A DNA stretch of 64,000 nt from a virus (taxonomy: Duplodnaviria; Caudoviricetes): the IMG/VR virus record IMGVR_UViG_3300035497_000412; one strand, given 5' to 3'. Below are positions 8,260 to 56,755 of the stretch, piece after piece; position 1 is the stretch's first letter, and every line of letters starts with the position of its first letter. The translations under genes were made by a program, and so were the position numbers. The notes under the pieces were generated by a model that saw only the letters and a list, made by a program, of their open reading frames with translations, ran no database searches and was not told the origin of the DNA.

Positions 8260-8336
8260 GCGGGGGTGGCGCAATCGGTAGACGCGGCTGTCTCAAAAAC
8301 AGTTTATTACGGGTTCAAATCCCGTCTCCCGCACCA
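8260..8336 (+). tRNA. tRNA-Leu(CAA) with short variable loop
   Basis: GCTGT-CTCAAAA-ACAGT anticodon arm, GGTTCAAATCC T arm, ACCA end. Confidence 0.85.
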
Positions 8337-8479
8337 AAAATTCTTTTTGATTTTTATAAAAAATATGATATAATATTTATAGAAAATTAAGAAAGGAATT
8401 GATAATATGTTTGATGATTTTGATACCCAGATTCAGAGTGATGAATTGGCTTATTACTATGAAAATTGGGAGGAGATCA

Positions 8480-8617
8480 ATGAAGAAGAATATTTTTAAG
8501 AAGTCTTCTGAAGAACTTCAAGAGTATTTGCAATTCCGTAAGAGAGGATTTAAAGTAGAGCCTAAGAAAGGTAAAGGTTCTTATAAAAGAAAAAGTAAGT
8601 ATAATAAGCTCCCTTAA
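8480..8617 (+). CDS. ArfA-like alternative ribosome-rescue peptide
   Basis: FRKRGFKVEPKKGKGSYKRK matches the ArfA KKGKGSYxR motif; GGAGGAG RBS. Confidence 0.65.
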   Translation: MKKNIFKKSSEELQEYLQFRKRGFKVEPKKGKGSYKRKSKYNKLP

Positions 8618-8619
8618 AT

Positions 8620-8694
8620 GGCGCATTAGTCAAGCGGCTAAGACGGCTGACTTTCGATCAGCAAACAGGAGTTCGATTCTCCTATGCGCTACCA
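8620..8694 (+). tRNA. tRNA-Glu(TTC)
   Basis: GCTGA-CTTTCGA-TCAGC anticodon arm, T arm, ACCA. Confidence 0.9.
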
Positions 8695-8723
8695 TGAACC
8701 TTTGTTTTGGTTTTCTTTACGTT

Positions 8724-8752
8724 AAGACCTGGGCAAGTCTTGAAACTACCCA
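8724..8752 (+). ncRNA. H-type pseudoknot motif, copy 1 of 3
   Basis: AAGAC-CTGGGCA-A-GTCTT-GAAAC-TACCCA; covarying homolog of 13156 and 13870. Confidence 0.55.
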
Positions 8753-8786
8753 TTCCTCAATTTTGAAGAAAGGTATGGTAAGATTT

Positions 8787-9014
8787 ATGAAAATTACAAA
8801 TATCAATCAGATCCATACAGTGCTTGCGACTATTGATAACTGTAAGGGTGATGTGCAGCTGAGATTTAATAATGGCGATTGGTTTAGTCTGAAGTCTCGG
8901 TTTAGTCGTTATGTTGCCATGGACGCTCTTATCAGAGATTGCAATGAAGAGCTTGAGCTTTATTGCTGCAATCAGCAGGATGAAGAATATCTTTATAAGA
9001 TTCTTCAAGGTTAA
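8787..9014 (+). CDS. small HPr-fold-like protein
   Basis: IDNCKGDVQL...FSLKS pattern resembles Clostridial HPr-like proteins. Confidence 0.45.
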   Translation: MKITNINQIHTVLATIDNCKGDVQLRFNNGDWFSLKSRFSRYVAMDALIRDCNEELELYCCNQQDEEYLYKILQG

Positions 9015-9021
9015 AAAAAAT

Positions 9022-9169
9022 GAGCTAGTGGCGCAATGGTAGCGCAACGCACTTGTCATAATAGTATAAGAAATATAGTTCTTATTTATAAGAAAAGATA
9101 TAAGTCCAAATCTTATTTATGGCACCATTAATGCGTGGGTTGCGGGTTCAAATCCCGCCTAGCTCACCA
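9022..9169 (+). tRNA. tRNA-Lys(TTT) split by a 73-nt tRNA-like insertion (exons 9022-9054 and 9128-9169)
   Basis: Acceptor GAGCTAG/CTAGCTC+ACCA; anticodon stem ACGCA/TGCGT; joining the exons gives loop CTTTTAA. Confidence 0.8.
9055..9127 (+). ncRNA. degenerate tRNA-like element nested in the tRNA-Lys anticodon
   Basis: GTCATAA/TTATGGC acceptor stem + A + CCA; T arm ATAAG-TCCAAAT-CTTAT; AT-drifted D and anticodon arms. Confidence 0.75.
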
Positions 9170-9344
9170 AATAAAGACCAGCTAATAGGGAACCTAGAAT
9201 ATTGCGTCTATGGCTGCTGGAATCCGCTACCTTTGCTATATATATAGCACAAAAGACCTTTTTCCTAAGAGGAGTCTTTTACGTTAGGCGAAACATTATG
9301 TGGAATTTTTCGTTTGTTTTTCTTTCCTCTTAGTTTATATATTT

Positions 9345-12266: not shown

Positions 12267-12340
12267 GGTCGATTAGTTTAATGGTAGAACAGGATACTTG
12301 TAATATTCAGGCGCGGGTCCGATTCCTGCATTGACCTCCA
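12267..12340 (+). tRNA. tRNA-Thr(TGT)
   Basis: GGATA-CTTGTAA-TATTC anticodon arm, TCCA end. Confidence 0.85.
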
Positions 12341-12785: not shown

Positions 12786-13099
12786 AGTGGCATGGTGTAA
12801 TGGTAGCACAGCGGTCTCTTGAAAATTGGACACCTAGCGTCGAAAGTGCTAGTGTGAATGGAGCCTAAAACGGGGAAACCCTAAGTGAATTTTTCATATG
12901 GCAATCCCGTGCTAAACTTCTACTTGTCAGTAGAAGAAATGTGTAGAGACTATATAGTTCCAATCTAACCCAAATTTTGGTATGATTAAGAGATAGTCCA
13001 GACCACAACAATTATTTTGGCTATGGAAACATAGTGTGGTAAGAAAACCGTATCCCCCTGAAGGAGTAAGTGAAAGTTCGAATCTTTCTGCCACTGCCA
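12786..13099 (+). tRNA. amber suppressor tRNA(CTA) with group I intron (exons 12786-12819 and 13044-13099)
   Basis: AGTGGCA/TGCCACT+GCCA; stem GCGGT/ACCGT; spliced loop CT-CTA-AA; long variable arm. Confidence 0.8.
12820..13043 (+). mobile_element. group I intron in the suppressor tRNA anticodon
   Basis: Core AAAACGGGGAAA, AATCCCGTG, GTAGAGACTA and AAGAGATAGTCC; follows U, ends in G; IGS ATTGGA pairs with TCT|AA. Confidence 0.9.
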
Positions 13100-13472: not shown

Positions 13473-13823
13473 GCCGCCGTGGTGGAATAGGTAGACACCA
13501 CAGACTTTTTGGAATACACAAGGACAACTTCATTAAAATCTTCCAAAAAAGTGTATTCTTAATAGAGCCATAAGATAGGAAACTTCTTATGGGATGTGCG
13601 CTAATTCGGCGAAACTCTCTTTGAGACAACGCCGAGCTAAGTTCAGATTTATCTGATAAATGTGTAGAGATCATATACGCACCTCCTAAGTCAGTATAAC
13701 TGATATGGAGAAGACATGATCCAGACTACAACGGTTTTGTCCAACCGGCTATGGCGACATAGAGTAGTAGGAAAATCTGTTATTGGAAACAATGTGCCGA
13801 TTCGAATTCGGCCGGCGGCACCA
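13473..13823 (+). tRNA. tRNA-Leu(TAA) with group I intron (exons 13473-13507 and 13772-13823)
   Basis: Stem ACAGA/TCTGT; spliced loop CT-TAA-AA; long variable arm; ACCA. Confidence 0.88.
13508..13771 (+). mobile_element. group I intron after U34 of tRNA-Leu(UAA)
   Basis: AATTCGGCGAAA, AACGCCGAG, GTAGAGATCA and GACATGATCC (P7); terminal G. Confidence 0.88.
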
Positions 13824-14980: not shown

Positions 14981-16534
14981 ATGAATAGTTTTATTAATGG
15001 ATTGAAGAACGCTACTAATTTCACTTTTACGGAAAATCATGCAATCACACATAAAACCTCTAACTCTGATCTTCTGGATATGTTTGCTATGGGTGGCGCA
15101 TATAGAACCCGTTCTGATGAAGATTGTATTCTTCTTTTTAAGAACGCTCTTGAAGAAAATGAAGAGTATGCTATGAAGTGTTTGTTTTACCTCAGAGACG
15201 TTCGCGGAGGCCAGGGCGAACGCAGATTTTTCCGGGTATGTATGCGCTGGCTGGTCTCTGCGCGCCCTGAGACCGCTCGCCGCAATCTTCAGTATATTAG
15301 TGAGTATGGTAGATGGGATGATTTGATTTATATTTGCTATAAAACTCCTCTTTGGAAGGATTGCGTAGCTATTGTCAAGCATCAGCTGGCTTTGGATTGT
15401 GAAGATGTAATTATGAACAATGGCGCCGTGAGCCTGCTTGCAAAGTGGATGCCGAGTGAAAATACTTCTAGTGCCAAAACTAGAGAAGTAGCTTCTGCTC
15501 TGAGAAAGGGTCTTGGTATGACTTCTAAGCAGTACCGCAAGACTCTTTCTACCCTGCGTGAGCGTATCAATGTTCTTGAGCGTCTTATGTCCGCTGGAGA
15601 ATGGGATAAAATCGACTTTTCTAAGATTCCTTCTAAGGCTGGATTGAAGTATAAGAACGCTTTTGCAAAGCATGATCTTGACCGTATGGCTCTTGGAAAG
15701 CAGACTTATGAAGATTTTGCTAAAGATAAGAATACTACAGTAAATGCTGATACTCTTTATCCTTATGAAGTTGTTGCAGAAGTTATGAAGGTTTTTGGCG
15801 GCGTATATTCTCTTCGTTTTAATGCAGGCAAAGTTCCTTTGAATGACACTAATCGTTTGATGGTTAACAAATACTGGGACAATCTTTATGACTATTTCCA
15901 AGGGGCATCTTTGAATGCTATGGCGGTGGTTGATGTGTCTGGAAGTATGTTCGGTGATTGCGCTTCTGCCCCTCTCAATGTAGCTATTTCTCTTGGAATG
16001 TATTGCGCCGAGAAAGCAAAAGGTCCTTATGCTGGTCATTTTATGACTTTTAGTTCTAAGCCCGACTTCGTAAAAGTAGAAGGTGTTGATTTTTACGATA
16101 AGGTTGTTAGAATGACTAGAACTGATTGGGGTGGATCTACCAATATTGAAGCTTGTTTTGACTTGATGCTGAAGGTCGCTATTGATAATAATCTTTCTCA
16201 AGACGAAATTCCGGCAAGTTTGATTATTATCAGCGATATGGAATTTGACGACTGCGCTACTTCAAAAAGATGTAGACTCCGTCATGTCGGTGATACAGCC
16301 ACGTTGATGGAAATGATTGAAAAGAGATGGAATCAAGCTGGTTATAAAATGCCTTGCCTTACTTTCTGGAATGTTGATGCTCGTCACAACAATATTCCTA
16401 TGAAAGTTAAAGATGGCGTTCAGTTCGTTTCTGGTATGTCTCCTTCAATTTTCCAGATGGTGATGGAAAACAAGAATGCTTTCGATTTGATGTACTCTGT
16501 ACTTGATTCTGAAAGATATTCTGCAATTAAGTAA
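14981..16534 (+). CDS. DUF2828 (TROVE/Ro60-like) protein with vWA domain
   Basis: TEN, LRDVRGGQGER, EYGRWDDL, AKWMPSE, YRK, and vWA motifs DVSGSM and ISDMEFD. Confidence 0.8.
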   Translation: MNSFINGLKNATNFTFTENHAITHKTSNSDLLDMFAMGGAYRTRSDEDCILLFKNALEENEEYAMKCLFYLRDVRGGQGERRFFRVCMRWLVSARPETARRNLQYISEYGRWDDLIYICYKTPLWKDCVAIVKHQLALDCEDVIMNNGAVSLLAKWMPSENTSSAKTREVASALRKGLGMTSKQYRKTLSTLRERINVLERLMSAGEWDKIDFSKIPSKAGLKYKNAFAKHDLDRMALGKQTYEDFAKDKNTTVNADTLYPYEVVAEVMKVFGGVYSLRFNAGKVPLNDTNRLMVNKYWDNLYDYFQGASLNAMAVVDVSGSMFGDCASAPLNVAISLGMYCAEKAKGPYAGHFMTFSSKPDFVKVEGVDFYDKVVRMTRTDWGGSTNIEACFDLMLKVAIDNNLSQDEIPASLIIISDMEFDDCATSKRCRLRHVGDTATLMEMIEKRWNQAGYKMPCLTFWNVDARHNNIPMKVKDGVQFVSGMSPSIFQMVMENKNAFDLMYSVLDSERYSAIK

Positions 16535-20470: not shown

Positions 20471-21334
20471 ATGAAGAGACTATTTAATCTTGGAATTATA
20501 TTAACAGTATTACTGAGTATACTTACTATGCAATGTTATGCAGAGAATCTTAGAGAAAATCCAAATTTTGAAGCAAATATTATAGATAATTTACCCGAAG
20601 AGGCCGAGGTAAAAGTCTTATCTATGGATGGGCACTGGTATTATATTTTTTATAATGGTAATTATGGATATCTTTATAATCCATATGCAGAGACTGTTAA
20701 ACTAACAGGAACTGTTAGCGCCCAAATAGCATTAATTCGTCAGAGTCCCGATGATGAAAGCGAGATTATTGGAGTCTTAGCAGAAAATGAAGTTGTTGTA
20801 ATTGAAGAAATTACAGACGATTGGTATAAATTGGAAGATGGATATATACGACGAGATTTTCTTTAGTTAGAAGAAAATGATAATGATACCGCAGAGCAAG
20901 AAATAATTACTATAGTAGAAGAAGACTTCGTTCCAATAGAAGAATTAATTGATCCTAATATAAACATTATAATTACTCCTAAAATAGTATCTATAACTAA
21001 GAAATATTTAGGAGTCCCTTATATTTGGGGTGGAACTACTCCAACAGGATTTGATTGTTCAGGATTTACTCAATATGTAATGCGCCAATGCGGTTACTCG
21101 ATCAATCGAACGGCCGCAAACCAGTATAGCAATGGGACATATGTTGCTTATAGTGATTTACAGGCAGGAGATTTAGTATTTTTCTCTTCTGGAGGTAAAA
21201 TTAATCACGTTGGCATCTATATTGGAGATGGACAATTTATCCACTCGCCGCATACTGGAGACGTAGTAAAAATTTCTAGTTTATCTGAAACATATTATAC
21301 CAATCACTATTATGGTGCAAGACGAGTATCATAA
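20471..21334 (+). CDS. secreted SH3b + NlpC/P60 peptidoglycan peptidase (TAG=Gln at 20864)
   Basis: Signal peptide, two SH3b-like repeats, YLGVPYIWGG..GFDCSG and HVGIY. Confidence 0.85.
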
Positions 21335-22352: not shown

Positions 22353-23648
22353 ATGGCTTATTTTGCATATGTAACTACTTTACAGAATCTGCGGCCACAT
22401 CCTAATGCTGATCGTCTTCAGTTAGGAGATTGCTTTGGTAATACTGTTTGCGTTAGCATGGAATATACTGAGGGGCAGATTGGAATTTATTTTCCGGTAG
22501 ATGGACAGTTGTCTGAGGAGTTTGCTGAAAAGAATAATTTGATTCGACACAAGGATGAAAATGGCAATAACATTGGTGGCTATATGTCGGATAAGCGCAA
22601 TGTTACTGCAATCAAGCTGCGAGGTCAGAAGTCCGATGGACTGTTTCTTCCGATTTCTTGCTTAGCATATGCTGGTAATACTTCCAAGTTGCAAATTGGC
22701 GATGCTATTAGTGTATTCAATGGGCATGAGATTTGTCAGAAGTATATTCCTAAGAAGAATTCTCGACAGAATGTTTCTGCTGGCAACCGCACCCGTAAGA
22801 AGAAGGTTCCTATGGCCCCTCTTTTTATTGAACACGTTGATACTGAACAGCTTGCTTATCATATGAGCGACTTCCAGCCTGGTGATGATGTAGAAATTAC
22901 TTTGAAGATGCACGGAAGTTCACAGCGAACTGGGCATTTGCCTGTTTTCAAGGGATATAAGCGTTCTTTCTGGGACAAGATTACCCATAAGGAAGGAACT
23001 CCTATTTATGACTGGGGTTATGTGACTGGAACTCGGCGTACTGTCCTTAATGAGGATTCTGAAGGATACTATGGTTCTAATGAATTTCGTAAGGTTCATA
23101 GCGATTTCCTAGAAGGTAAGCTTTGGAAAAATGAGGAAATCTTTTACGAAGTGGTTGGTTATATTGACGATAGAATTTCTATTATGCCTTCTGGAACCGT
23201 TCCTAATGAATATCGCCAACAATATGGAAAGATTATGGAATTCTCTTATGGTATGACTGCACCCAACTCTGATATGTATGTATATAGAATGACTATGACC
23301 TCCCCCGATGGAGAAATTGTTGAGTACTCTCCTGAGTTTATGCGTTATCGCTGTAAGCAGATTGGAGTAAAGTGCGTTCCCGTCTTATGGCGCGGACGTA
23401 TTCCAGAAGACATTGATATTCCTGCTGGTGAGTGGATTAAGAATATCGCTGAGCGGTATTATGATGGTCCTGATCCTATTGGTAAGACTCATGTGCGCGA
23501 AGGTGTCGTCTGCCGCATTGTGAATCGTCCGAAGTTTGCTGGTTACAAGCATAAGAATTGGCTGTTTAAGTACGTATCTGGTATTATTGTAGAAAAAATT
23601 GCTGATAGCGATGAAACTTATGATGCAGATATTCTTTCGGAGATGTAA
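22353..23648 (+). CDS. ATP-dependent RNA ligase (Rnl2/DRB0094-type) with N-terminal OB domain
   Basis: HPNADRL, KLRGQKSDG, motif I TLKMHGSS, REGVV, YKHKN. Confidence 0.8.
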   Translation: MAYFAYVTTLQNLRPHPNADRLQLGDCFGNTVCVSMEYTEGQIGIYFPVDGQLSEEFAEKNNLIRHKDENGNNIGGYMSDKRNVTAIKLRGQKSDGLFLPISCLAYAGNTSKLQIGDAISVFNGHEICQKYIPKKNSRQNVSAGNRTRKKKVPMAPLFIEHVDTEQLAYHMSDFQPGDDVEITLKMHGSSQRTGHLPVFKGYKRSFWDKITHKEGTPIYDWGYVTGTRRTVLNEDSEGYYGSNEFRKVHSDFLEGKLWKNEEIFYEVVGYIDDRISIMPSGTVPNEYRQQYGKIMEFSYGMTAPNSDMYVYRMTMTSPDGEIVEYSPEFMRYRCKQIGVKCVPVLWRGRIPEDIDIPAGEWIKNIAERYYDGPDPIGKTHVREGVVCRIVNRPKFAGYKHKNWLFKYVSGIIVEKIADSDETYDADILSEM

Positions 23649-24750
23649 TAATGAAAATGAAAATTGATAAAGCTAGTTTTGCTAATATGATAAAGGTTAT
23701 GGAAAAATACAAAGAGCAATCTGAGAACTTGTCTAAAATAGGTATTAGTGTTTGGAATCCTGTAATGAATAATTTAGAGGCTTATTATCTAATTACGTTA
23801 AAAGTTATTATGAACGACACAGGAGATTTAATTAGGTACTTTTGTTACACTTTGAATTTTGGTAAAAATTGGAAACCTGGTTGCTATCTTGGTAGAGGTG
23901 GAAAAGATATCTCTTTGAAGGATTCAAATGATTTATGGAATGCGCTAGTAGGAGAAAATGAATGAAGATGATTATTATTGCAGTAGTTGCTTTTATCGTT
24001 GGGTTTGGCTTTGGTGCTATGATTATGTCACTGATGGCAGTAAAGGAGGAAAATTAATGAACGAAAATAATAATAATAGTATTTTTGAAGTTCTTACGGA
24101 AGCACTTGCATCTGTTATTGCTGGAATTATTATTTTATTTGTTGACGCTGCACTTGCGACATGGCTTTGGAATCTTATTGTAGTTTTAGTGTTTCATGCC
24201 CCCGCACTCGTTTTTTGGCAGGCATTTGGCCTTATCGCTTTGGTAAGAATTATTTTAAATTTGGAGACTATTACGTTCAGTACAGATACAAATGAAGAAT
24301 AATAAAAAAATCAAGGATTCTAATAAAAAGAGAATCCTTGTTTTTTTTATAAAAATATGCTATAATATATATATAAAATAAAGGAGATGTTAAGTATGAA
24401 ATTTAAGCATCGAAAGAGTGCTCAGCGCAAGATTAACAAGGCAGTTAAGAATATGAATAAGAGCATTGCCGTTGACCCTCTGTGGAGAGGAAGATTTTGT
24501 GCCCATCAGACTTACTCAAGTTGGGAGAGTTTTACAGATGGCTCTGGTGGAATTCTAAATGTAAATATTGAGTTTAAGGATAAAAAGACTGGTTACACAA
24601 AGTTGTTTCTTTTTGATAGCTGCGGTAGAATTGAATGGTATCTTTTTCTTGCTATGAATGATTTCATTGTAACAGATTGTCACGATTCTACTTGGGGCGA
24701 TAGAGAGGCTATTTTAGCAGATACTACTGATTATACAAAGATTAATTAAT

Positions 24751-25443
24751 ATGATATATGTAACTTCAGATTGGCATGGTTATTTAGCTTTATATGACGA
24801 AGCTAAAAAAATATTATCTCCAGATGATACCGTGTATTTTTTAGGAGATATTATTGATAGAGGTCCAGAGCCTTGGAAAATTTTTAAAACCCTTTATAAA
24901 GACCCCCAATTTATTCTGCTTTGCGGTAATCATGAAGATATGCTTATTAAAGCTTTGAATAATCAATTAAAGTCTATAGAACTTCTCCGTCAAAATGGAG
25001 GATATGAAACTTATATGCAAGTTCTTCAAGAAAAAGACGTTGAAAAGTGGGTAAAGCGTTTACAGTCTTTACCATTAATGACATCTTTAAACAATGAAAA
25101 AGGACAAAATTTGATTTTATGTCATGCAGGGTATACTCCAAAAGAAGGCTTCATTCCCACCTCAGATGATTTGTTATGGAATCGAAATCATATTTACAAT
25201 AATTGGAGTGGTGATGATAATACCATTGTAATTCATGGACACACCCCCATTGCAAGTATGAATAAAAGATTTAAAAAAGCAAATGACTTTTATGAAACAG
25301 AAAGATTTACCACATTGCAAACTTCAGCAGTTTTATATTATTGTGACAAGCATAAAATCGATGTAGATATGGGCACAGTAAAAACTCATATGGCAGTTCT
25401 TCTAAATATAGACACTTTTGAAGAAATTATTTTAAAAATCTAA
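24751..25443 (+). CDS. Ser/Thr protein phosphatase-like metallophosphoesterase
   Basis: SDWHG, LGDIIDRG, GNHE, HAG, HGHTP. Confidence 0.85.
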   Translation: MIYVTSDWHGYLALYDEAKKILSPDDTVYFLGDIIDRGPEPWKIFKTLYKDPQFILLCGNHEDMLIKALNNQLKSIELLRQNGGYETYMQVLQEKDVEKWVKRLQSLPLMTSLNNEKGQNLILCHAGYTPKEGFIPTSDDLLWNRNHIYNNWSGDDNTIVIHGHTPIASMNKRFKKANDFYETERFTTLQTSAVLYYCDKHKIDVDMGTVKTHMAVLLNIDTFEEIILKI

Positions 25444-25725
25444 ATATAGAGTAGGTGGTTTATATGGCTAGGAAAAACATTGTTGAGCATGATTTTTATT
25501 GTCTGAATTGCGGCAAGCGCGCTTTGACTCTCCCGCGCAAGCAAGGACATCAGCATGAGAGATTTCATAGAAAAAAACTTTATTGCCCTTGGTGCCAAAT
25601 GAAAGTCAATGCGATTGAATGTAAAACTTGGGAAGATAGAATTGAATTTCAGGAAAATTTTGAAAAAGGAATTTATAAGGAAGAGGCTGCCGCAAGTATT
25701 GAGTATGCGCTAAATGAGAGGAAAT

Positions 25726-26199
25726 ATGATTAAAACGTCCAAGAATTTATATTTACTTTGCGGGATTCCAGGATCTGGGAAATCGACTTTTGTTAAGAAC
25801 GACCTTGCGCGTACTCATGGCAAATGGATTTCACGAGATGAGGTAAGATTCAGTATTGTTAATGATGATGAAGAATACTTTTCTCATGAGGATGAAGTTT
25901 TTAATACTTTTATCATTTGGATTAATGAAGCTCTTAATAATTATGATGATGTCTATGTAGATGCTACTCATTTAAATGAAAGAGCTAGAAATAAAGTTCT
26001 GAAGCGTCTTAACTTATTTGATGTAAATATTATTGCTGTCAACTTTAATGTAAATGTTAATATCTGTTTAGAACGTAATTCCAAGCGAGAAGGTAGAGCT
26101 TGCGTTCCTGAGAAGGCCATCCGCAATATGTATGCAAGTTGGCATCCTGCTAAAAAGGGAGAGCTATTTAATTATACAGAAATTATTAATATTGAGTAA
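25726..26199 (+). CDS. AAA_33 P-loop kinase (polynucleotide kinase-like)
   Basis: GIPGSGKST, ISRDEVR, DATHL, CLERNSKR. Confidence 0.8.
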   Translation: MIKTSKNLYLLCGIPGSGKSTFVKNDLARTHGKWISRDEVRFSIVNDDEEYFSHEDEVFNTFIIWINEALNNYDDVYVDATHLNERARNKVLKRLNLFDVNIIAVNFNVNVNICLERNSKREGRACVPEKAIRNMYASWHPAKKGELFNYTEIINIE

Positions 26200-26215
26200 A
26201 AAGAGGGTGATTTTT

Positions 26216-26783
26216 ACGATCTGGTTTACTTCAGATTGGCATTAGCCACTTTAATCATAACAAGGACTTCATTTGGAAATCAAGAGGATTTTCAAGCGTT
26301 GAAGAGATGAATAAGGAAATTGTGTTTCGACATAATCTTTTTGTTTCTCTGTGGGATGATGTCTATGTACTTGGTGATCTTTGTCTTGGCGCGGATGACG
26401 TTTATGAAGATAATAAACGTCTTATTGAATCTTTGAATGGCAGACTTCATATTGTGCTGGGAAACCATGATAGCCAAAAGCGCATTGAAATGTATAAAAC
26501 TTGCAAGAATGTTGTTGAAATTTGCGGCTATGCTACAATGCTAAAGTATAAGAAATACATTTTTTATATTAGCCATTATCCAACTTTGACAAGTAACTTT
26601 GATAATACTAAGCCGCTAAAAGCAAAAACTATCAATCTGTGTGGACATGGTCATGTTGAAGACAAGTTTGCGGATATTGATAAAGGCTTGATTTATCATG
26701 TGGAAATGGACGCACACAGTTGCTACCCTATTGCCCTTGATGATATTATTGAACAACTTAAATATAGATATTTAGAGGTATGA
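26216..26783 (+). CDS. metallophosphoesterase; ACG start and a 7-nt out-of-frame insertion at 26243-26249
   Basis: FTSDWH|FNHN is restored by skipping 7 nt; LGDL, GNHD, SHYP and GHGH downstream. Confidence 0.7.
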
Positions 26784-26949
26784 GCTTTTCTCATACCTCT
26801 TTTTTTTTAATTCAATTTTCGTTAGGCTAGACACGCTCGCTTGCTGATTTTTCACCCGTATAGCATTTTTTTAACCAAAAAGTTGGATTTGCTTTTTCCG
26901 GTTTTTTTTAGTATAATAATATTAATAGATTAGAAGAAAGGAGAATCTT

Positions 26950-27390
26950 ATGGTAAAGGAAAAAATTGAATTTAACTGGATTGAAGAATTGAGTATGGCT
27001 ACTTGCAACCTTGAAGTTAATGGCCATGTTTTCCATGGATCTGCTACTTGCCATCCAAAAGATAAAGATATGTGTAGTGAAAAAACTGGAGAAGAAATTG
27101 CCTATCGTCGTGCCACAATTAGTTATCTGTAGTATTTAAAGGAAAATTACCAAGGACGAATTCAAGGTTTAAAACAATTTTATTATTCAATTAATCAAAG
27201 TAAAAAATATAATGCGGATAGTTATGAAGCTATTATGCTACGGCGTCAAATACGTCTTCTTGAAGAAGAATTAGATATTATTAAAGAAATGATTATTGAA
27301 GAAAAACATGGTTTAAGAACTTATATTTCTTTAAAAGATGATTTTTATAATACAGTTCGTTCTATTAGGGGTAAGGACAAGAACTATTAA
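26950..27390 (+). CDS. hypothetical protein (TAG=Gln at 27130)
   Basis: G.A.CHP.D....KTG.EIA motif; frame continues to TAA 27390. Confidence 0.65.
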
Positions 27391-27691
27391 TTTTATATTA
27401 ATAAAATACTACTATTAATAGAAGGATTCATATCTTCAAGTAAAAAAGGAGTGTGGTTTATATCGTTTCGTTATTATTTTTTTTACTGGGGATAATTTTT
27501 ATTATTTTTGTTTATCCTATAATTGACGGAGTGTGTTCTATTATATTAACGCAAATAGAATACATTAAGGGGATATATGCTCTTAAAATTTCTAAGTTAA
27601 ATTTGCAGATATCGTCTTTGGATGAAGACAAAGAAACAATGAATCCAATAGGTTTTGTGATTAGTTCAGACAAAGATGAAGGAGGAAACAA

Positions 27692-29228
27692 ATGAAACGC
27701 AATTTCTATGATACAAGCAGTCTACTATTAAGAGCTGATGATTTATTTTCAAAAGAAGAAAATATAGCCTTTTCTTCCATAACTTTACAAGAATTGGAAA
27801 GCATTAAAAGTTCAACGAGTAAAGATTTAGATATAAAATTTGCAGCTCGAAAACTTCTTCATCTTTTTATTAGACATCCAAACGAATATGAAGTTTTTAT
27901 TTATAATGATAATATGAATACTCCTATTTGCAAAAAGGGGCTAGAATTAACAAATGATACCAAAATTCTAGCAACTGCTATAGCATATGATCAAGCATAT
28001 CCAGATGAAGTTATATTTATTACTAATGATTTAGCTTTATACAATATTGCCAATCTATTTTTTGGTAATGATAGTATTGATATGGTTGAAGAGGATAAAG
28101 CAGATGATTACACTGGATATTTACAGGTCAATATGAGTGAATAGGAAATGGAATATTTTTATTCTAATATGAATAAAAATATTTATGATTTATTAGTAAA
28201 TCAATATTTAGTCATTTGTGATAAAGATAATAATTTTGTTGATAGCTATTGCTGGACGGGTGAAAATTATCGTCCTTTAAATTATGATGCTTTTAATTCT
28301 ATTTGGTTTGGTAAGGTTAAACCTTATAAGAATGATGTATATCAAAGACTGCTATTTGATAGCTTATATAATAATGATATGACTATCATTAGAGGTCCAG
28401 CTGGATGCGGTAAGAGTTTTTGCGCAATGAGCTATTTAATGTATGCGCTTGATAAAGGCATTATTGATAAGATTTATATTTTTTGTAATCCAGTAGCTAC
28501 AAAAGATTCCGCTCGACTTGGGTTAATTTAAATTAGGGTAAGGCTCAAGTATAAAACTCCGTGAATTGCTGGAACCTCCTTAGAGCTATACAAACCACAA
28601 CATAAACATGAAATAAGGTTAAATGTGAAGGTTTAAGAATTGTGTAGATTGGACAATCAGCAGCGAAGCCTCGAATAGAGGAACGTTCATCGACTATCGA
28701 AAAGCGCATATGCGAACTTAGTAGAGTAGGATAATTATCCGAAGCGCGGAGATTCTATTTTTAGAATAAGATATAGTCAGGCTTTTGATGAAAGTCAAAA
28801 GGTTAAATGTTTACCCTGGCGATAAGAACATGAAGCTTTTAGATTCTCAGATTGGAAATTTTTTAGTCGGTAAATTTGGAGGAATGGAAGCCGTAGATGA
28901 ATTAATTGAAAAAGGTCAATTGATTTTAGCACCAATTTCAGATTGCAGAGGAACCGATTTAAGTGGAAAAATTGGAGTTTATATGACTGAAGCGCAAAAT
29001 ACAACTGTTGATATAATGCAATTAGTTCTCCAAAGAGTTGGCAGTAATTGTAAAGTTATCATTGAAGGTGACGATAAAGCACAAGTTGATTTAAATGCTT
29101 ACTCCAATGGAAACAATGGTCTAAGAAAAGCTTCTCAAGTTTTTAGAGGACAAGATTATTATGGAGAAATTACACTAAATGCTTGCCATAGATCAAAAAT
29201 TGCTAGACAAGCAGAATTAATGACCTAA
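27692..29228 (+). CDS. phoH: PIN-PhoH protein (TAG=Gln at 28142; intron 28524-28809)
   Basis: PIN YDTS/ELE/NDTKI/TND; Walker A GPAGCGKS; spliced LG|FYPGD; RG, EAQN, GD..QVD. Confidence 0.85.
28524..28809 (+). mobile_element. group I intron in phoH
   Basis: AATTGCTGGAA, AATCAGCAG, CATCGACTA and AAGATATAGTC; removal restores the frame. Confidence 0.9.
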
Positions 29229-37866: not shown

Positions 37867-38811
37867 ATGATTATTATTGGAATTATTTGCCTTATTATTG
37901 GACTTGTGGTCGGTTATGCCGTTTAGCGGCCAAAAGTTAAGGCAACGCAGATTTTAGATAAAGAAACGGCCCAAAAGAATCAACAACTTTAGATTGAACT
38001 TGCGCAATTAAGCGCACAAAGAGATGAATTTAAAGACTCTATCCAAATCTTAGAAAATTAGTCTAAAGAAGCTGGAGAAAAATTTCTTGCGCAAGCAAAA
38101 CGAGCAGCAGAACTTAACTTTGAGCAACAAACTGAGGCTTTAGCACGGTCTTACCAAGAGAACAAAGAACAAAGTGATGCTGAATATCTAAATGTTCTTG
38201 AAGATTTAGCTGCTAATGCACAAAAGCAAATCCAAGAGTATCAAAGAAAGATTTCTGATTGTAAAGAAGAATTCATAGAGCTTAATAGAACTTTAGAGCT
38301 AAAAGCTTCCGAAGTGGCAGCCGCAGTTGAAGCGAGTAAAAGAGCTGAAGAAATGGAAAATAAAAAAGATTTTTATCGGCTTGTATTAAGTGACGAAGAT
38401 ATTTCAGAGATTAAGCGCTTGCGTGAAGTAACAGCCTATTTGCGTAATAGTGAACCTATTAACAAGGTTATTTGGAAAACTTATTATGAAAAACCTTATA
38501 CTGATTTAGTTGGTAGAGTAGTAGGAACTGGCGTTCATACTGGTATTTATAAAATTACAAATATTGAGAATGGTAAGTGTTATGTGGGACAAGCTCGTAA
38601 CATTGCTGAACGCTTTCGCCAACACATTAAAAGAGGTATCGGTGCGGAGACCCCTACGCGCAATAAACTCTATCCAGCTATGTTAGCTATTGGAGTAGAA
38701 AATTTTACTTTTGAAGTAATTGAAGAATGTGATGCGTCTATGCTGAATGAAAGAGAAGACGCATGGCAGCAGTATTTTAAAAGTATTGAATATGGATATA
38801 GCATTAAATAA
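37867..38811 (+). CDS. membrane-anchored coiled-coil protein with C-terminal GIY-YIG domain (3 TAG=Gln)
   Basis: N-terminal TM helix, heptad region, GIYKITN...YVGQA..I.ERF.QH. Confidence 0.7.
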
Positions 38812-39102
38812 GGAGTTATGAATGAAAAGAATTATTGGTAATAGAGGTTCAGGTAAAACTCGTGAACTTATGGAGTTTGCTAAGGAAAATAATGCAATTT
38901 TTGTCTGTAGTAATCCATATGCAATGAGAAATAAAGCAGAAGCTTATGGTATTACTGGGCTTGAATTCTTGTCTTATGAAGATTATTTTTATTTTAACCA
39001 TAATGATGACACAGTTGTTATTGATGAGATTGAAGTATTCCTTAAACAATGCAATAGTCCATATATTATTGGTTATTCTTTAAGTAATGAGGATTAATAA
39101 AT

Positions 39103-39867
39103 ATGAAATGTGAAAATACAAGAGTATATAATTTTGAGAATAGTTTTCGAGGAATGAGAAATCCTAAGAACAGTTGGCATTTAAGTGATAGTGAATATGG
39201 GTTTTGCCCAATCGATAATATCACAGATATTGTATTAACTACTTATCAAAAATATCATGGTGAAGGAACCAGTCCAACTGGGGACGAGTATTTAGAGCTA
39301 GAGAAAAATATTGTAATTAGAGAAGACAATGGAATTTGCGAGTATGCGGCGGTTGGGCCAAAGGATATGAAATTAGCCCAGACTCTTGTCGCGGCAGGTC
39401 AAGAACATCGTAAATTTTTGAGGTAGGTTTTTGTAAGCGTTGATATTACAGCTCCTTTATATGTTTGGAAAGAGATATCAACTTATAAGGTAAGCACAGT
39501 CGCAAACTCTACTTCTACTATGCACAAACTTACCAGTAAGCCAATTACTATTGATTGCTTTGAAAGTGATGATTATGAGGATATTGAAGTTGAAGGTGGT
39601 ATTACTACTGGAGATTTCTTTATGCAAACGATTGGATATTGTGAAGAGCTACGACAGAAGTATTTAGAGACAAAGGATGTTCGGTATTGGAAAGAATTGG
39701 TAAGACTTCTTCCCGAATCGTGGCTTCAGACTCGCACTTGGACAGGCAATTATGAAACTTTGCGTTCAATGTATCATCAGCGCAAAAATCATAAGTTAAC
39801 CGAATGGCATACTTTTTGCTCTTGGATTGAAAGTCTACCTTATGCGAAGGAGCTTATTTGTATATGA
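39103..39867 (+). CDS. ThyX-like (FAD-dependent thymidylate synthase fold) protein (TAG=Gln at 39424)
   Basis: GMRNP, HRKFLR*V, DITAPLY.WKE..TY, NSTSTMH, RKNHKL.EW. Confidence 0.7.
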
Positions 39868-50854: not shown

Positions 50855-53800
50855 ATGAAGAGTAAAACTTTCCCAGGAAGTCTTCATAATCATTAGTGGA
50901 GTATACCCAATACAGTAACACAAGACTTCGTGATTGTATTATTAAAGAAAATGATTTAATCGATTATGCGATTGAATTAGGACATGAAGTGGTAGCTATT
51001 ACCGACCATGAATGTATTAGTAATGCCATTAAAGTCCAAAAGTATTATAACAAAATTAAAAAAAACCATCCTAATTTTAAAGTAATTTTAGGTAATGAGA
51101 TTTATCTTTGTCGTAATGGTTTAACAAAAGACAATTTTATTAAAGGGCAAGACAAGTTTTGGCACTTTATTCTCTTGGCGAAAGATGCTATTGGTCATCA
51201 ACAAATTAGAGAAATTTCTACAAGAGCATGGTATCGTTCATGGATGACAGGTAAAATGCGGCGAGTGCCAACTTACTATCAAGACATTAAAGAAATTATT
51301 GGCGCCAATCCGGGCCATGTGATTGGGTCAACGGCCTGCCTGGGCAGCTTTTTATCCTCTTTAGTCCTGCAATATGAATCTTCTGACCAAAAAGAAGAAT
51401 ATTTAAATCAGATTCGTTATTGGGTTGAAGGTATGGAAAAATTCTTCGAAAAAGGGAATTTCTTCTTTGAACTTCAGCCCTCTGCTTCAAAAGAACAAAC
51501 TTATGTAAATCAGTTTTTAGTTTCTCTTTCTTCTGAAATGAATATTCCATATATTATTACAACAGACAGTCATTATCTTACTAAAAAAGATAGACCTATT
51601 CATAAAGCTTATTTAAATGCACAAGAAGGTGAGCGTGAAGTTGACAGCTTTTATGCCACCACTTATATGATGAATACAGAGGAGTTAGAGAGTTATTTAG
51701 ACTTAAATGAAGAGCAATTAGAAATAGCATATCAAAATATTAGAAAAATTAAAGATATGTGTTCTGATTACGATTTGCAAAAACCATTAAGAATCCCAGA
51801 ATTAACATGGAAAAAGCCAAAAAATTTGGTTAATCCTGAACAATATTATAGTCAGATTCCCTATCTAAAAGCTTTTATCAATTCAGACTACAATGGAGAT
51901 AAAATACTTGCACAGCATATTGTAGACAGACTTTTTTGGGATGAAACGCTTCAAAATCAAAAGACTTACGAAGCAGTAGATGAATGTCTTAAAATGACCT
52001 GGGAATCTTCTCTTGTCAATAAAACGCATTGGAGTGCTTATTATTTAAATCTACAAAAAATTATTGATACAGTGTGGGATGCAGGGAGTTTAGTTGGTCC
52101 GGGTAGAGGTTCTGGTGTTGGGTTAAAAGTTAGGCTCAACTAAAAATTCGTGAACTATATTGCTTATAGGTGTCTAGTATAAAATACTAGGCTAACGGTT
52201 CAGAAGGTAGTAATACCATTATGAGTAAGGGAACCTAAGTCTTTTTTACTAAAAAGATAAGGAAATACCGTGTCAAGTTTGTTTAATAAAGGTTCATCCT
52301 TTTTTATATATAATAGGAAGATTAGTAATAATTAACTTAATTTATATATAAAAAAAGGAGAAGATAAAGTGGGTTTTATTTATAAAGCAACAAATAATAT
52401 AAATAAAAAAGTCTATATTGGAAAGACCACAAGAACCCTTAAAGATAGAAAAAAGGAACATATTAGTCACGCCAAATCAGAAGATTATTATTTTCATAAC
52501 GCTTTAAGAAAATATGGTGCTGAGAATTTTACTTGGGAAATAATAGAAGAGGTAGAACTAGATAAAATAAACGAACGAGAATGTTATTGGATTGAATATT
52601 ATAAAAGCTATAAAGATAAAAGTAAAGGATATAATTTAACTCCTGGCGGTGAAGGATTTAAATTATCAGAAGAAACCAAAAGGAAAATATCTGCGGCTAA
52701 CGCCGGTAAAGTAAGGACTCCTGAAATGAGACAGCATTTAAGTGAAGTTAAAAAAGCGTTACATTTTAGGCATACAGAAGAAACAAAGAAAAAAATGAGT
52801 GCAGCAAGAAGAGGAAGAAAGCTTTCTCCTGAAACAATAGAAAAATTAAAACAAATAGAAAGAACTTCAGAATGGAGAGAAAAAATTAGTAAAGCACTTA
52901 AAGGAAGAACTTACTCGGAGGAGACAAAAATAAAAATGAGTGAAGCCGCAAAAGACCATTTTACTTTTTATACTTCTAACGATTTAATTTTTCATACTTG
53001 GGGAGAAATTTTCCGGTATCTTAAAGATAATAATCTAATAACTACCGATGATATTGCGGTTTGTAGAAATTGTATTAGACCAGCAATAGATAATCTAGAA
53101 CTTGTTCGTTACGGAATGAAATGGAAAACTTCAATTTTTACAGAGGAAGAAAAAATTATTGCTCCTAGAAAATGTTCTGAAAAAACCAAGAAAAAAATTG
53201 GTGCAGCAAATAGCAATAAAAACGAAATTGTTATGATGATTCGATTTGACGGAGATAAACAAGAATTTGCTTCAAGAAGAGAAGCTTATGACTATTGTAT
53301 TAAACAAAAATACATTCCTAATACACAAGTTTATTCAAAATTTTCTTCAAAAATAGGAGAAGCTTCAAAAACAGGCAATAAATTTAAGGGAATGAACTGG
53401 ATTATTAAACAAAAAGATGTAGAGACTATCGAAAAGTAAAAAAAATTTTTTACCGAGTAGAGTAGGGCGGAAGATAAGCTACCGTTCGAAGTGCGAATTG
53501 CTTATATGTTAAGTAAAGAGATAGTCCATACTATATAGAAATATATAATAAATAGTTATACTTTTATATATCCTCGATATTACACAAATAAATCCCTTGC
53601 GGGAAACTACTAAGACATATAGCTGGAGATTTCTTAATCCCAGTCGTGTATCTGTGTTGGATTAATATAAAATTTTAAAAAGAAATTTTAATAGTCCCCT
53701 TACATTGGAAGATGTAAAGGAAAAACTCTGAATATCAGGGAAAGCCCTTAGAGCTTTTATTACCAAGCGTTAATGAAAATGAAACGTGGCTGAAGTAATT

Positions 53801-56755
53801 ACTCAGGTATGGTAACAAGATAAAAGATTGGGTAATCCTGAGACATAGCCCTAAGTCTTTAAGGATAAGGGAAGGTCGCAACGACTACCAAGGAGAGCCG
53901 AGAAACGGTTATGGTATAGTCTATTCCCCTAGTTAAATATCGGGAAACCGAGGGTATAAAAGGTTGACTTTGATATCGAAGGAGGCAGACGTCCGCAAGT
54001 TTTGGCGAAGTTCCGAGAAGTGTATGGTGAAGATAGAGTAGCTAACGTTATTACTTTTGGAACAGAAAAATCTAAATCAGCCATTTTAACTGCGGCTAGA
54101 GGTTTAAATATTGAACACGATGATGCACAATATTTAGCTTCTTTAATTCCAGCAGATAGAGGTATTACAAGAACTCTTAAACAATGTTATTATGGAGATC
54201 AAGAAAGCGGATTTGCTCCAATAGCTCAGTTTGTAAAAGAAATGGATAATTATCCCGAGTTATGGGAAGTTGCTCAAAAAATCGAAGGTCTGGTTTGTCG
54301 ATCTGGAATTCATGCAGGCGGTGTTATTTTTGTTGATGAATCTTTTACTAATTCAACTGGATTAATGCGCGCGCCAGATGGTACTATTGTAACAGCATAT
54401 GACCTTCATGATTCAGAAGATGTGAGTCAGCGAAAGCTAAGGCTCCTAAATACCTAATCACTTATCAGTGATGTTATATAGGCTCTTAGAAATAAGGTAA
54501 GTAAAAAATACCTATATAGCACCGGGGAAACCTAAGTAATAAAAAATTATATGGCGATCCCGGACTAAATTGGGTATTACCCATAAATGTCTATCGACTA
54601 TCCCCCAGAAGGGGAGTAAGGTTACTATTGATACGTAATCTGAAACGGTATTCTCTCAAAAAGAGTAAGAGATAGTCAGTACCATTGGAAACAATGGAAT
54701 AATACGCTAATTAAATACGATGCACTTTCTGTTGAAGCAGAAGATAAAATTCATTTATGCTTAGACCTGTTATGCAATGCTGGATATATTGAGCGTAAAC
54801 CTACTTTAAAAGAAACATATGAAAACGCTTTGAATATTTATTCTCTTGAAAGAGATGACCCTAAAATGTGGGAAATGACATGGAAACATGAGATTCTTTC
54901 TTTGTTCCAAATGGAGAAGCAAAGTGGTATTCAAGGCATTGCATTAACAAAACCTAAAAGTGTTGAAGATTTAGCCCACCTTAACTCTGTAATTCGTCTA
55001 ATGGCTCAAGAAAAGGGTGGCGAACAGCCTCTTCAAAAATTTGCTAGATTTAAACAAAATATTAATCTTTGGTATAAAGAAATGAATAGATATGGCTTAA
55101 CTAAAGCAGAGCAAGAATTATTAAAGCCATATCTCAGTAGTTCTTATGGTATTTGTGAAGCGCAGGAAACTTTTATGATGCTTGTTCAGATTCCTGAGTG
55201 CGGCGGGTTTGATCTAAACTGGGCCGATCGGCTCCGCAAGAGCATCGCAAAGAAGAATCCTGCGGAGTTTGATCAATTGACAAAAGAATATTTCGTTAGA
55301 GCCAATGAAAAAAATTTAAGTAAAAATTTATGTAATTATGTGTGGAATGTTCTAGTGTCTACTAGTCGCGGGTATGGATTTAATCTATCTCATACATTAG
55401 CATATTCTCTAGTAGCTCTTCAGGAAATGAATTTAGCTTATAAATATCCTACCATTTATTGGAATTGTGCTTGTCTTATTAATGATAGTGGTAGTATTGA
55501 ATATGATAAAGATGTAGATGCAGAAGACCAAAATACCAATTATGACAAAATTGCCCAAGCTATTGGTAAAATGCGTGAAGCTGGAGTTAAAATTAGCCTT
55601 GTAGATATAAACAAATCAAGTTATACTTTTATTCCAGATGAAAAGAATAATCAAATTCTTTATGGAATGAAAGGTCTTGTAAATGTTAGCGATGATTTAG
55701 TAGAACAAATTATTGCAAACCGTCCTTATACTTCTATTAAAGACTTTTACTATAAAGTAAAGCCCAAAAAACAGTCAATGATTTCATTGATTAAAAGTGG
55801 TGCTTTTGATACAATGGAAGACAGAAAATTTGCGATGGCCTGGTTTATTTGGGAAACGTGTGATAAAAAGAGTAGACTTACTCTCCAAAATATGCCAGGA
55901 TTAATTAAATATAACCTCCTGCCGCAAGATACTAATGAGCAAGTTATGGCTCGTAGAGTATATGAATTTAACAGATATTTAAAAGCAGTTTGTAAAAATT
56001 CTAGAGATACAGAAAATTATATTCTAACAGATAGAGCCATTAATTTCCTTGATGAATTAGAAATAGATTATAATGCTGATAGAACTTTATCTATTAAAAA
56101 ATGGGATAAGCATTATCAAAAATGGATGGATATTTTTAGAAATTGGATTACTGCTGATAAAGAAAATATCCTAAAATCTTTGAATCAAATCATTTTTATG
56201 GAAGAGTGGAATAAATACGCTAAAGGTAATATTTCAGCTTGGGAAATGCAAGCAATGTGTTTCTATTATCATGAACACGAACTGGCGCATTTAAACACAT
56301 CAAAATATGGGATTGTAGATTTCAATAAGCTTCCAGAAGAGCCAATTATTGAAAAGTCTTTCTCAAGAGGCGGAAAAACAATTAATATGTTTAAGCTATT
56401 TAAAATTTGCGGCACTTGCATTGCGAAAAATAAGGCAAAAGCTACTGTTACGTTACTTACTACTTCTGGAGTCGTAGAAGTTAAGTTCCGTAAAGAGTAC
56501 TTTAGTTTATTTGATAAGCAAATTTCCATAAAGAATGATGATGGAACTAAAACTATAGTCGAGCGCAGTTGGTTTAATCGAGGAAGTATGATTGTTGTCC
56601 AAGGTATCCGCTCTGGTGATAACTTTATTGTAAAAAAATATGCTTCTTCTGTTGGGCATCAACTTTATAAAATTCTTGAAGTTATTAATGGAACTGACCT
56701 AAAATTAACTAGTGAAAGATTCCAAGGGGGTGAAGAATCTGAAGACGAAGAATAA
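50855..56755 (+). CDS. dnaE: DNA polymerase III alpha subunit (3 group I introns plus an 11-nt insertion at 50894-50904)
   Basis: HNH|TQYS, AITDH, TDSHY, GRGSGVG|F, RFLN..R..LD|VDFD, HAGG, S|LIKYDAL, YGFNLSH. Confidence 0.9.
52124..53555 (+). mobile_element. group I intron 1 of dnaE, carrying a GIY-YIG homing endonuclease
   Basis: GCTAACGG/ATACCGTG, GTAGAGACTA and GAGATAGTCC; removal restores the frame. Confidence 0.9.
52369..53439 (+). CDS. GIY-YIG homing endonuclease with NUMOD3 repeats
   Basis: FIYKATN...YIGKT, GYNLTPGG, repeated SEETK.K(I/M)S. Confidence 0.9.
   Translation: MGFIYKATNNINKKVYIGKTTRTLKDRKKEHISHAKSEDYYFHNALRKYGAENFTWEIIEEVELDKINERECYWIEYYKSYKDKSKGYNLTPGGEGFKLSEETKRKISAANAGKVRTPEMRQHLSEVKKALHFRHTEETKKKMSAARRGRKLSPETIEKLKQIERTSEWREKISKALKGRTYSEETKIKMSEAAKDHFTFYTSNDLIFHTWGEIFRYLKDNNLITTDDIAVCRNCIRPAIDNLELVRYGMKWKTSIFTEEEKIIAPRKCSEKTKKKIGAANSNKNEIVMMIRFDGDKQEFASRREAYDYCIKQKYIPNTQVYSKFSSKIGEASKTGNKFKGMNWIIKQKDVETIEK
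53663..53962 (+). mobile_element. group I intron 2 of dnaE (no ORF), in the catalytic Asp motif
   Basis: AATATCAGGGAA/AATCCTGAG, CAACGACTAC and GTATAGTC; removal restores the frame. Confidence 0.9.
54428..54706 (+). mobile_element. group I intron 3 of dnaE (no ORF)
   Basis: CCGGGGAAA/ATCCCGG, TATCGACTA and GAGATAGTC; removal restores the frame. Confidence 0.9.

Follow-up and report, generated by a model that had tools for sequence, protein, structure and literature searches.

A 64,000-nucleotide (nt) stretch of DNA from an uncultured gut phage (IMG/VR record IMGVR_UViG_3300035497_000412; hereafter, the window) contains a tRNA-Lys(UUU) gene whose anticodon loop is interrupted by a 73-nt insert that is itself shaped like a tRNA. 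We describe the anatomy of this insert, its exact boundaries, the family to which it belongs, the conservation of the exons around it, and its homology to larger inserts that carry a gene for an HNH endonuclease. An intron defined by its tRNA-like ends is the best reading of the insert, and one that is strongly supported by comparison among related phages. How such an intron would leave the transcript is a further question. We propose that RNase P, an endonuclease acting on tRNA 3' ends, and an RNA ligase together splice out what is a mobile intron lacking an open reading frame (ORF). Every enzymatic step of this route is one that we infer, and we consider its chances to be evenly balanced.

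Anatomy of the split tRNA gene

The gene lies on the forward strand at positions 9022 to 9169. Its 5' exon (9022-9054; tRNA positions 1-34) provides the 5' strand of the acceptor stem, the D arm, the 5' strand of the anticodon stem, and C32, U33, and U34, while its 3' exon (9128-9169) provides U35, U36, A37, and A38, the 3' strand of the anticodon stem, the variable loop, the T arm, the 3' strand of the acceptor stem, A73, and CCA. The four outer stems are paired throughout (GAGCTAG/CTAGCTC, GCGC/GCGC, ACGCA/TGCGT, and GCGGG/CCCGC). When applied to the window, the Rfam tRNA model aligned from end to end over 9022-9166 with a score of 58 bits and placed a 76-nt insertion in the anticodon loop. 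The insert proper (9055-9127) follows U34 in this otherwise intact gene (34|35) and, scored alone on the same model, reached 33.7 bits (E 3.4e-6; gathering score, 29). The first-pass annotation, which had described an intact tRNA interrupted after U34 by a cloverleaf running from G1 to CCA, was therefore correct on this point. The left flank is T and the insert starts with G, and the insert ends with A and the next base is T; because these bases differ, the boundaries are fixed and cannot slide.

Like a tRNA, the insert, which has no ORF, begins with the 5' strand of an acceptor stem (GTCATAA, 9055-9061) that pairs at seven of seven positions with 9117-9123. This is followed by a D arm (GTAT-AAGAA-ATAT, 9064-9076, from the cmscan alignment), a hairpin in the place of the anticodon arm (TTCTTA-TTTA-TAAGAA, 9079-9094), a T arm that retains G53-C61 and C56 and has C for U55 (ATAAG-TCCAAAT-CTTAT, 9100-9116), and a final segment comprising the acceptor 3' strand TTATGGC, a discriminator A, and CCA (9117-9127), so that the tail ACCA (9124-9127) is flush with the 3' exon. 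The acceptor stem is present in the minimum free energy fold, and the fold energy has a z score of -2.4. Among 200,000 shuffles of the insert, two gave the full seven acceptor and five T-stem pairs, and neither of these also ended in CCA. The inner unit does not have the features of a functional decoding tRNA: its D loop is AAGAA, without the canonical G18 and G19, its T loop is TCCAAAT, where U54, U55, and C56 would be canonical, and in place of an arm with a 7-nt anticodon loop its middle is a 6-bp hairpin with a 4-nt loop, an arm that other members of the family lack altogether. It had been suggested that the D and anticodon arms of the insert had drifted from canonical sequence. They are indeed noncanonical, but random drift does not describe the D arm, whose short loop without G18 and G19 is typical of the family and which recurs in related inserts as GTAT-AAGAA-ATAC or GCAT-AAGTA-ATGC (alignment A3).

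Removal of 9055-9127 in silico restores a 7-nt loop, CTTTTAA, with U33 and a purine at position 37, and ARAGORN then called a tRNA-Lys(ttt), in agreement with the identity assigned previously (loop CUUUUAA). Run with default settings on the intact window, ARAGORN overlooked the gene, and in intron mode it reported Thr(tgt) with a 73-nt intron displaced by one base, such that the G is retained and the anticodon becomes UGU. Similarity of the tRNA body cannot separate Lys from Thr. We read the gene as Lys because the split gene has A73 and A2-U71, whereas the window's own tRNA-Thr(tgt), at 12267, begins with GG and has U73; because the rule that the insert runs from G1 to CCA was proved on an orthologous pair and yields fitting anticodons elsewhere (see below); and because the relatives of this insert all reside in tRNA-Lys(UUU) genes carrying A73. 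It is the only tRNA-Lys gene within the window.

A separately recorded Logan contig (L128, run SRR11792166) is 100% identical to the window over positions 8334-9234 (901 nt), which speaks against misassembly. The first-pass annotation had also allowed for a dead fossil, that is, a tRNA fragment ligated into a cleaved anticodon and subsequently fixed in DNA. Nothing except its shape favors such an origin, and relatives of the insert found in the tRNA-Lys(UUU) anticodon of several phages carry an HNH gene, so that the insert is a mobile element at the DNA level and not a ligated fossil. Fossil and artifact alike are exceedingly improbable, and we regard the split tRNA as confirmed. We found nothing similar to the split gene among GenBank phages, and exact-pattern scans of IMG/VR with either exon of the window, or with the exon of a related contig (L127), returned no match.

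The insert also bears no resemblance to a catalytic RNA. At 73 nt, it is too small for any known class of self-splicing intron. No Rfam ribozyme or intron family matched either the insert or L130:2800-3750, and the group I model (Intron_gpI, RF00028) gave no match to the insert at E values up to 10, although the same model detected the genuine group I introns of the window at 12809-13021 and 13548-13744. Those two introns, which interrupt neighboring tRNA genes, do indicate that self-splicing elements invade genes of this type. Yet the inserts of this family are as short as 44 nt, the features they have in common are those of tRNA and nothing else, and the window copy ends with A instead of the terminal G of group I introns. 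We thus consider it very improbable that the insert represents a small RNA of a new kind that splices or cleaves itself. Nor did we find a bulge-helix-bulge: by inspection, a 7-bp helix in the fold is bordered by CUU on one side and by ACCA together with UUAA on the other.

A family of inserts in related phages

Using a conserved DUF2828/DUF7788 protein (14981-16534), we collected 126 related loci, with further loci recovered via other proteins. A search of related phages for tRNA halves that flank an element ending in CCA, which had been recommended as a check, was productive. In gut and rumen phages we cataloged 21 inserts built in the same way; the tRNA genes they interrupt are of nine kinds (Lys, Glu, Gln, Leu, Thr, Asn, Gly, Ile, and Pro). 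We refer to them as tRNA-shaped (N1-to-CCA) phage tRNA introns, a family that is defined in this analysis and has not been published as such. Inserts without an ORF are 44 to 118 nt long, and three with an ORF are 734 to 737 nt; the insertion sites are 32|33, 34|35, 35|36, and 36|37. This breadth does not fit the earlier idea that the insert shields tRNA-Lys from anticodon nucleases such as PrrC.

Conservation within the family is concentrated in the parts that mimic a tRNA end. Of the 192 acceptor and T-stem cells in 16 distinct members, 186 are standard pairs, compared with 110 ± 7 (maximum, 137) when 3' strands were permuted among members 2,000 times. Compensatory changes occur at every position of the acceptor stem and at four of five positions in the T stem, with several pair types at each, while G53-C61 and C56 are invariant. 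All 12 of these pairs are retained in the ORF-less copies. Pairs were counted by position with a script, because the 5' acceptor strands of the 44- to 118-nt inserts do not fall into shared columns in MAFFT alignments. The first nucleotide of the insert is G in 17 of the 21 members, the preceding base is U in 15, and the tail is NCCA in 18, GCAA in 1, and a discriminator alone in 2. Scanning for inserts without CCA was noisy (27 hits on control strands in the combined scan), for which reason only those last two were kept; their ends can slide by one base.

Decay of the outer tRNA in relatives, together with loss of the inner stems, had been named as grounds for doubt. Instead, the inner stems are conserved, and all 21 genes yield a standard tRNA when N1 through CCA is excised in silico, with a canonical 7-nt loop, U33, and a purine at position 37. 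By eye, the anticodon obtained under this rule also fits the tRNA body where the intron mode of ARAGORN misnames it, as in a Gln gene (L047), a Gly gene (L052), and an Escherichia coli-like Lys gene (L030). Direct evidence for the boundaries comes from tRNA-Glu(UUC), which is empty in one phage (L035:9638) and filled in two others (L037:14418 and L028:12924) with the same flanks and nearly the same exons. Between CTTT and CAA, the filled genes contain 44 nt that correspond exactly to G1..(A/G)CCA, with no sliding, and this comparison of filled and empty sites fixes the ends of the insert. A second potential empty site, in an Asn set (L033 and L037 versus L035 and L042), was dropped because it is not a clean orthologous pair. 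We also set aside the HNH locus of Bacillus phage SDFMU_Pbc (L136), which has tRNA-like pieces and no clear member of the family.

Six interrupted alleles of tRNA-Lys allow the fate of the split gene to be followed. They keep 125 of 126 stem pairs along with A73 despite many changes, which are compensatory, and from this we conclude that the split genes are under selection. This pattern argues that split Lys genes still make tRNA.

Mobile relatives and the origin of the insert

A small ORF lies just upstream of the split tRNA. IMG/VR yielded no relatives of this ORF. The protein database yielded one, on a 1.5-kb contig (L127); the identical contig L128 was also found. The flanks of L127 are 85 to 93% identical to the window, and at the same place it has a tRNA 5' half ending in GGACTT, then GCTGTAA-TC-GTAT-AAGAA-ATAC, a homolog of the first part of the insert, and then the start of an HNH gene; this copy is partial. 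Full-length copies of this HNH gene, encoding 204 amino acids, are found inside the tRNA-Lys(UUU) genes of L130, L132, L134, L138, and L139. These inserts of 734 to 737 nt sit in the anticodon, at 34|35 as in the window (L130, L132, and L138) or at 35|36 (L134 and L139). The order of parts is the first exon; the 7-nt acceptor strand and D arm; a short stem; the ORF, which thus falls between the D and T arms in the place of the hairpin at 9079-9094; the T arm, acceptor 3' strand, and N-CCA; and the second exon. In L130, the one checked, the stop codon of the HNH ORF overlaps the T stem.

The window insert is homologous to the HNH-bearing inserts at both ends and has the same D arm (alignments A3 and A4). 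A profile of the 3' ends of the five HNH-bearing Lys introns recovered window positions 9092-9127 with an E value of 1.1e-7 (next window match, 0.34), while the corresponding 5'-end profile gave a weak match (E 0.13) at the right place. Because both ends match, we assign the window insert to a mobile intron family, as a member without an ORF. The window holds no homolog of the 204-residue intron HNH protein, and its copy has either lost the HNH gene or never had one. In the relatives, the endonuclease encoded inside the intron would drive homing into intron-less tRNA genes. Another kind of insert came to light at one of these loci (L134:4088-4645), where 481 nt interrupt a gene resembling tRNA-Val(UAC) behind position 36; they include an ORF of the PD-(D/E)XK type (PDDEXK_5), and their ends do not appear tRNA-shaped.

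The insert could be a selfish element that inactivates a dispensable tRNA gene, its tRNA shape serving the element (for example, by allowing RNase P and 3'-processing enzymes to release or stabilize the HNH transcript), with the window copy as a decaying remnant. The absence of the HNH ORF from that copy, the U55C change in its T loop, and a G.U pair in its D stem would suit such a history, as would a genome in which two other tRNA genes are interrupted by group I introns and the polymerase and reductase genes are seemingly interrupted as well, with endonuclease ORFs between their parts. On the other hand, a dead gene would not be expected to have perfect exons in 21 of 21 cases, to regain a canonical loop with U33 and a purine at position 37 upon removal of the insert, or, in the interrupted Lys alleles, to have A73 and compensatory changes; the ORF-less copies have kept all 12 acceptor and T-stem pairs, and the gene concerned is the sole tRNA-Lys in the 64 kb sampled from an AT-rich phage. 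We therefore think it quite unlikely that the insert is left unspliced.

A proposed route for excision and ligation

The ends of the insert coincide with the two sites at which every tRNA is matured. Minihelices composed of an acceptor stem and T arm and ending in CCA are substrates of RNase P, and the CCA is helpful. The RNA upstream of an RNase P cut ends in a 3'-OH, the RNA downstream of a cut by an endonuclease that processes tRNA 3' ends begins with a 5'-phosphate, and these are the ends that ligases of the Rnl type join. With these properties in mind, we envision a 148-nt precursor transcript within which both the inner tRNA-like unit and the tRNA-Lys around it fold. RNase P would read the inner unit as a pre-tRNA and cut on the 5' side of its G1 (9054|9055), leaving exon 1 with a 3'-OH. 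An endonuclease recognizing the mature tRNA 3' end would cut after CCA (9127|9128), leaving exon 2 with a 5'-phosphate; this could be RNase E, a phage enzyme, or an RNase Z capable of cutting beyond CCA. Still held together by base pairing, the exons would form a tRNA with a nick between U34 and U35, which an ATP-dependent RNA ligase would seal to give tRNA-Lys(UUU) with the junction ACGCACUUUUAAUGCGU.

The candidate for the sealing step is encoded within the window, about 13 kb from the split tRNA. The predicted product of 22353-23648 (forward strand) is an ATP-dependent RNA ligase resembling the Rnl5 enzymes of Naegleria and Deinococcus, with a predicted N-terminal OB fold and a putative nucleotidyltransferase domain. 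Its match to PHROG 968, "RNA ligase" (E 5e-65), upholds the previous annotation of this gene. Matches to the NgrRnl structure in PDB (E 0.002) and to PF21189 (27.9 bits; cutoff, 27) were weaker, and PF09414 scored below its cutoff (23.7 bits; cutoff, 27). Adjoining the ligase on the same strand (24751-26199) are a metallophosphoesterase (24751-25443) and a P-loop kinase of the AAA_33 type (25714-26199), which may be RNA end-healing enzymes. More broadly, positions 22353-28531 resemble an RNA repair cassette, comprising the Rnl5-like ligase, the AAA_33 kinase, two metallophosphoesterases (24751-25443 and 26307-26783), and a PIN-PhoH protein (27692-28531, read through a TAG codon).

Several considerations weigh against the proposed route. 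The cut after CCA is its weak step. In Thermotoga, RNase Z cleaves directly behind an encoded CCA, and a mature CCA end can also be produced by RNase E, but most RNase Z enzymes are inhibited by CCA (PMC7479834). No enzyme can be securely assigned to this cut. The host is probably Gram-positive, given that the phage has SH3-amidase and SH3-NlpC/P60 lysins and that the nearest tRNA matches are in phages of Bacillus, Enterococcus, and Listeria. Hosts of this sort are not known to have RNase E. Among the window ORFs scanned, none was RNase Z-like or RNase P-like. The elbow of the inner unit is noncanonical, since G18 and G19 are missing and position 55 is C. Finally, the co-occurrence of ligase and intron is uninformative, because PF09414 matches turned up in all five relatives searched (G002, G003, G005, G006, and G007) whether or not the insert is in the locus. 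Those matches, weak in two of the relatives, belong to different ligase families and exceed the cutoff in G003 and G005 only, and two of the five relatives have no insert of this type in the sampled 20-kb locus. RtcB was not found in any of the five.

These difficulties lend some appeal to a different set of enzymes. A dedicated phage or host endonuclease, distinct from RNase P and RNase Z, might use the tRNA-shaped unit as a handle and cut both junctions to leave cyclic-phosphate and 5'-OH ends, which kinase and phosphoesterases would heal before the ligase seals them, as in the "heal and seal" pathways of yeast and T4. The kinase and phosphoesterases matter only if the cuts leave such ends. 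Their presence beside the ligase, along with the PIN-PhoH protein, is what this scheme would call for, and so is the lack of a secure host enzyme for the cut after CCA. The introns described from Lak megaphages point in the same direction: RNase P alone would not remove the 27- to 31-nt leader that precedes their inner tRNA, and the wider family may therefore involve a further nuclease. But we could tie no candidate endonuclease to the introns, defense against anticodon nucleases would also explain the repair cassette, and a new enzyme would not need the insert to begin exactly where RNase P cuts and to stop exactly at a mature tRNA 3' terminus, as is seen in 21 members. We consider the heal-and-seal scheme unlikely.

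In its broadest form, our reading is that phages may harbor a further class of intron, tRNA-shaped and sometimes HNH-bearing, that has neither catalytic RNA nor a bulge-helix-bulge and is excised by the enzymes with which the cell processes tRNA ends (RNase P and a 3'-end endonuclease), a phage RNA ligase then sealing the nicked anticodon loop. We find this reading plausible but hold it with somewhat less than even confidence.

Genome setting and additional observations

The window is part of a large AT-rich phage genome (about 35% GC) in which a tRNA array (7.9-14 kb) is followed by replication genes. The DUF2828/DUF7788 protein used to collect loci (PHROG 850, "RNA-binding protein") adjoins the tRNA array in nearly every relative with flanking DNA, making it a stable neighbor of phage tRNA islands. 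Just after tRNA-Glu, at 8724-8755, is the motif GTTAAGACCTGGGCAAGTCTTGAAACTACCCA, which is also present in L127 (about 893-925) and L128 and is conserved in L127 in spite of 15% divergence of the surrounding sequence.

Two more tRNA genes of the array are split. At 12786-13099, a tRNA with a long variable arm is interrupted by a group I intron (Intron_gpI, 54.5 bits, 12809-13021). Joined by eye, its exons give the loop CTCTAAA and the anticodon CUA of an amber suppressor, which ARAGORN in intron mode reports as Leu(aag). At 13473-13823, the intron is group I-like (28.1 bits, below the gathering score, 13548-13744), and the exons fit a tRNA-Leu(UAA) split at the classical site U34|A35, which ARAGORN names Phe(gaa). 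A tRNA(CUA) is also found in many relatives. In-frame TAG codons occur at 20471-21334, 27692-28531, 39091-39867, and 57371-58648, and the proteins joined across them combine SH3 with NlpC/P60, PIN with PhoH, and ATP-cone with NrdD. In this phage, TAG probably encodes an amino acid, as would fit the suppressor tRNA.

Homing elements are abundant in this genome. The gene for the DNA polymerase III alpha subunit is in at least three pieces (50896-52143, 54002-54457, and 54830-56755) with a GIY-YIG/NUMOD3 endonuclease ORF between them (52369-53439), an HNH_3/NUMOD1 ORF (59446-60042) follows the NrdD piece, and another GIY-YIG ORF lies at 38314-38811. In the relatives, we also came across a second kind of short insert (34-51 nt) in the anticodon arms of tRNA genes. 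It consists of a hairpin followed by a motif like GTGACAGCAAT, has no acceptor stem and no CCA, and matches no ribozyme family. Examples are L026:1810-1924 and 1928-2047, L013:4100-4219, L016:2533-2649, L020:767-885, L025:2187-2306, L043:13853-14106, and L080:4050-4167; the tRNA bodies of the two in L026 score 46 to 47 bits on the Rfam tRNA model.

Implications and relation to known systems

If the proposed route is correct, there exists a class of introns that mimics the substrate of housekeeping RNases. It would be the first example, in bacteria or their viruses, of tRNA splicing that depends on proteins, by a route not yet known for any intron. It would also explain why many large phages encode RNA ligases, which would have a routine job in addition to repair. 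Under such a scheme, maturation of a phage tRNA would depend on a phage enzyme, and this dependence could act as a timing switch. In practice, tRNA finders miss split genes of this kind or misname their anticodons (here Thr for Lys, elsewhere Arg for Gln or Gly), and as a result, phage tRNA inventories and the codon-usage arguments built on them are biased.

Relative to published intron classes, the insert is of a new kind that has been glimpsed once in the literature. Full-text searching brought up no publication that deals with introns shaped like tRNAs or with how they are spliced. The tRNA genes of Lak megaphages, however, contain "enigmatic" introns, one of which "itself may encode a tRNA" (Devoto et al. 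2019, PMC6784885, Fig. 4 and Table S6). The Lak introns and the window insert both come from gut phages, interrupt the anticodon loop of a tRNA gene, and contain a tRNA-like unit, and both end where the inner tRNA does. The Lak introns in Tyr, Phe, and Gly genes are listed with "no hit in rfam," and for the intron in Thr(TGT), tRNAscan is off by one base, just as ARAGORN is for the window gene (PMC6784885). The two groups differ at both ends. In the Lak introns, the inner tRNA lacks CCA and the intron terminates at the discriminator (Table S6), and a conserved leader hairpin of 27 to 31 nt precedes the inner tRNA, so that the 5' end is not flush, whereas our family runs exactly from N1 to CCA and is flush. 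That paper puts forward no mechanism for these introns and mentions no endonuclease ORF inside them (PMC6784885). In our own collection, a homolog of the intron HNH protein (34% identity) is encoded just downstream of the Lak tRNA-Tyr gene with the longer "enigmatic" intron (L137; Lak-B6 128152-130649).

Group I introns in the anticodon loops of tRNA-Leu(UAA) and tRNA-fMet share with the window insert its location in the gene, mobility by way of an endonuclease ORF in a peripheral loop, and the existence of forms with and without that ORF. They differ in being ribozymes of about 200 nt or more with a catalytic core (P3-P9) and a terminal G, while the 73-nt insert has no catalytic core, ends with A, and matches the tRNA model only. 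The bulge-helix-bulge introns of archaea and eukaryotes, which rely on a splicing endonuclease together with RtcB or Trl1, are likewise small and protein-dependent, with cleavage by an endonuclease followed by ligation. Instead of two 3-nt bulges and a 4-bp helix, however, the junctions in the window flank a 3 × 8-nt internal loop that separates the outer anticodon stem from a 7-bp helix; the insertion site also varies within the family, and the gene belongs to a virus of bacteria. We found no match to a splicing-endonuclease family among the window ORFs scanned.

The closest parallels to the individual steps of our proposal lie outside of introns. In tRNA punctuation, known from mitochondrial transcripts, the mascRNA of MALAT1, and arrays of tRNAs and guide RNAs, RNase P and RNase Z free a tRNA-shaped unit and leave a 3'-OH upstream and a 5'-phosphate downstream. 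There the flanking RNAs are not rejoined, whereas here, rejoining would rebuild a tRNA. In phage T4, Pnkp and Rnl1 repair tRNA-Lys(UUU) after PrrC has cut its anticodon loop, the break being closed by a ligase of the phage; in the window too, a kinase and phosphoesterases accompany the ligase. The T4 enzymes repair damage inflicted by a defense nuclease of the host, while the break in the split tRNA-Lys would be a programmed step of maturation, sealed by a ligase that is Rnl5-like and not Rnl1.

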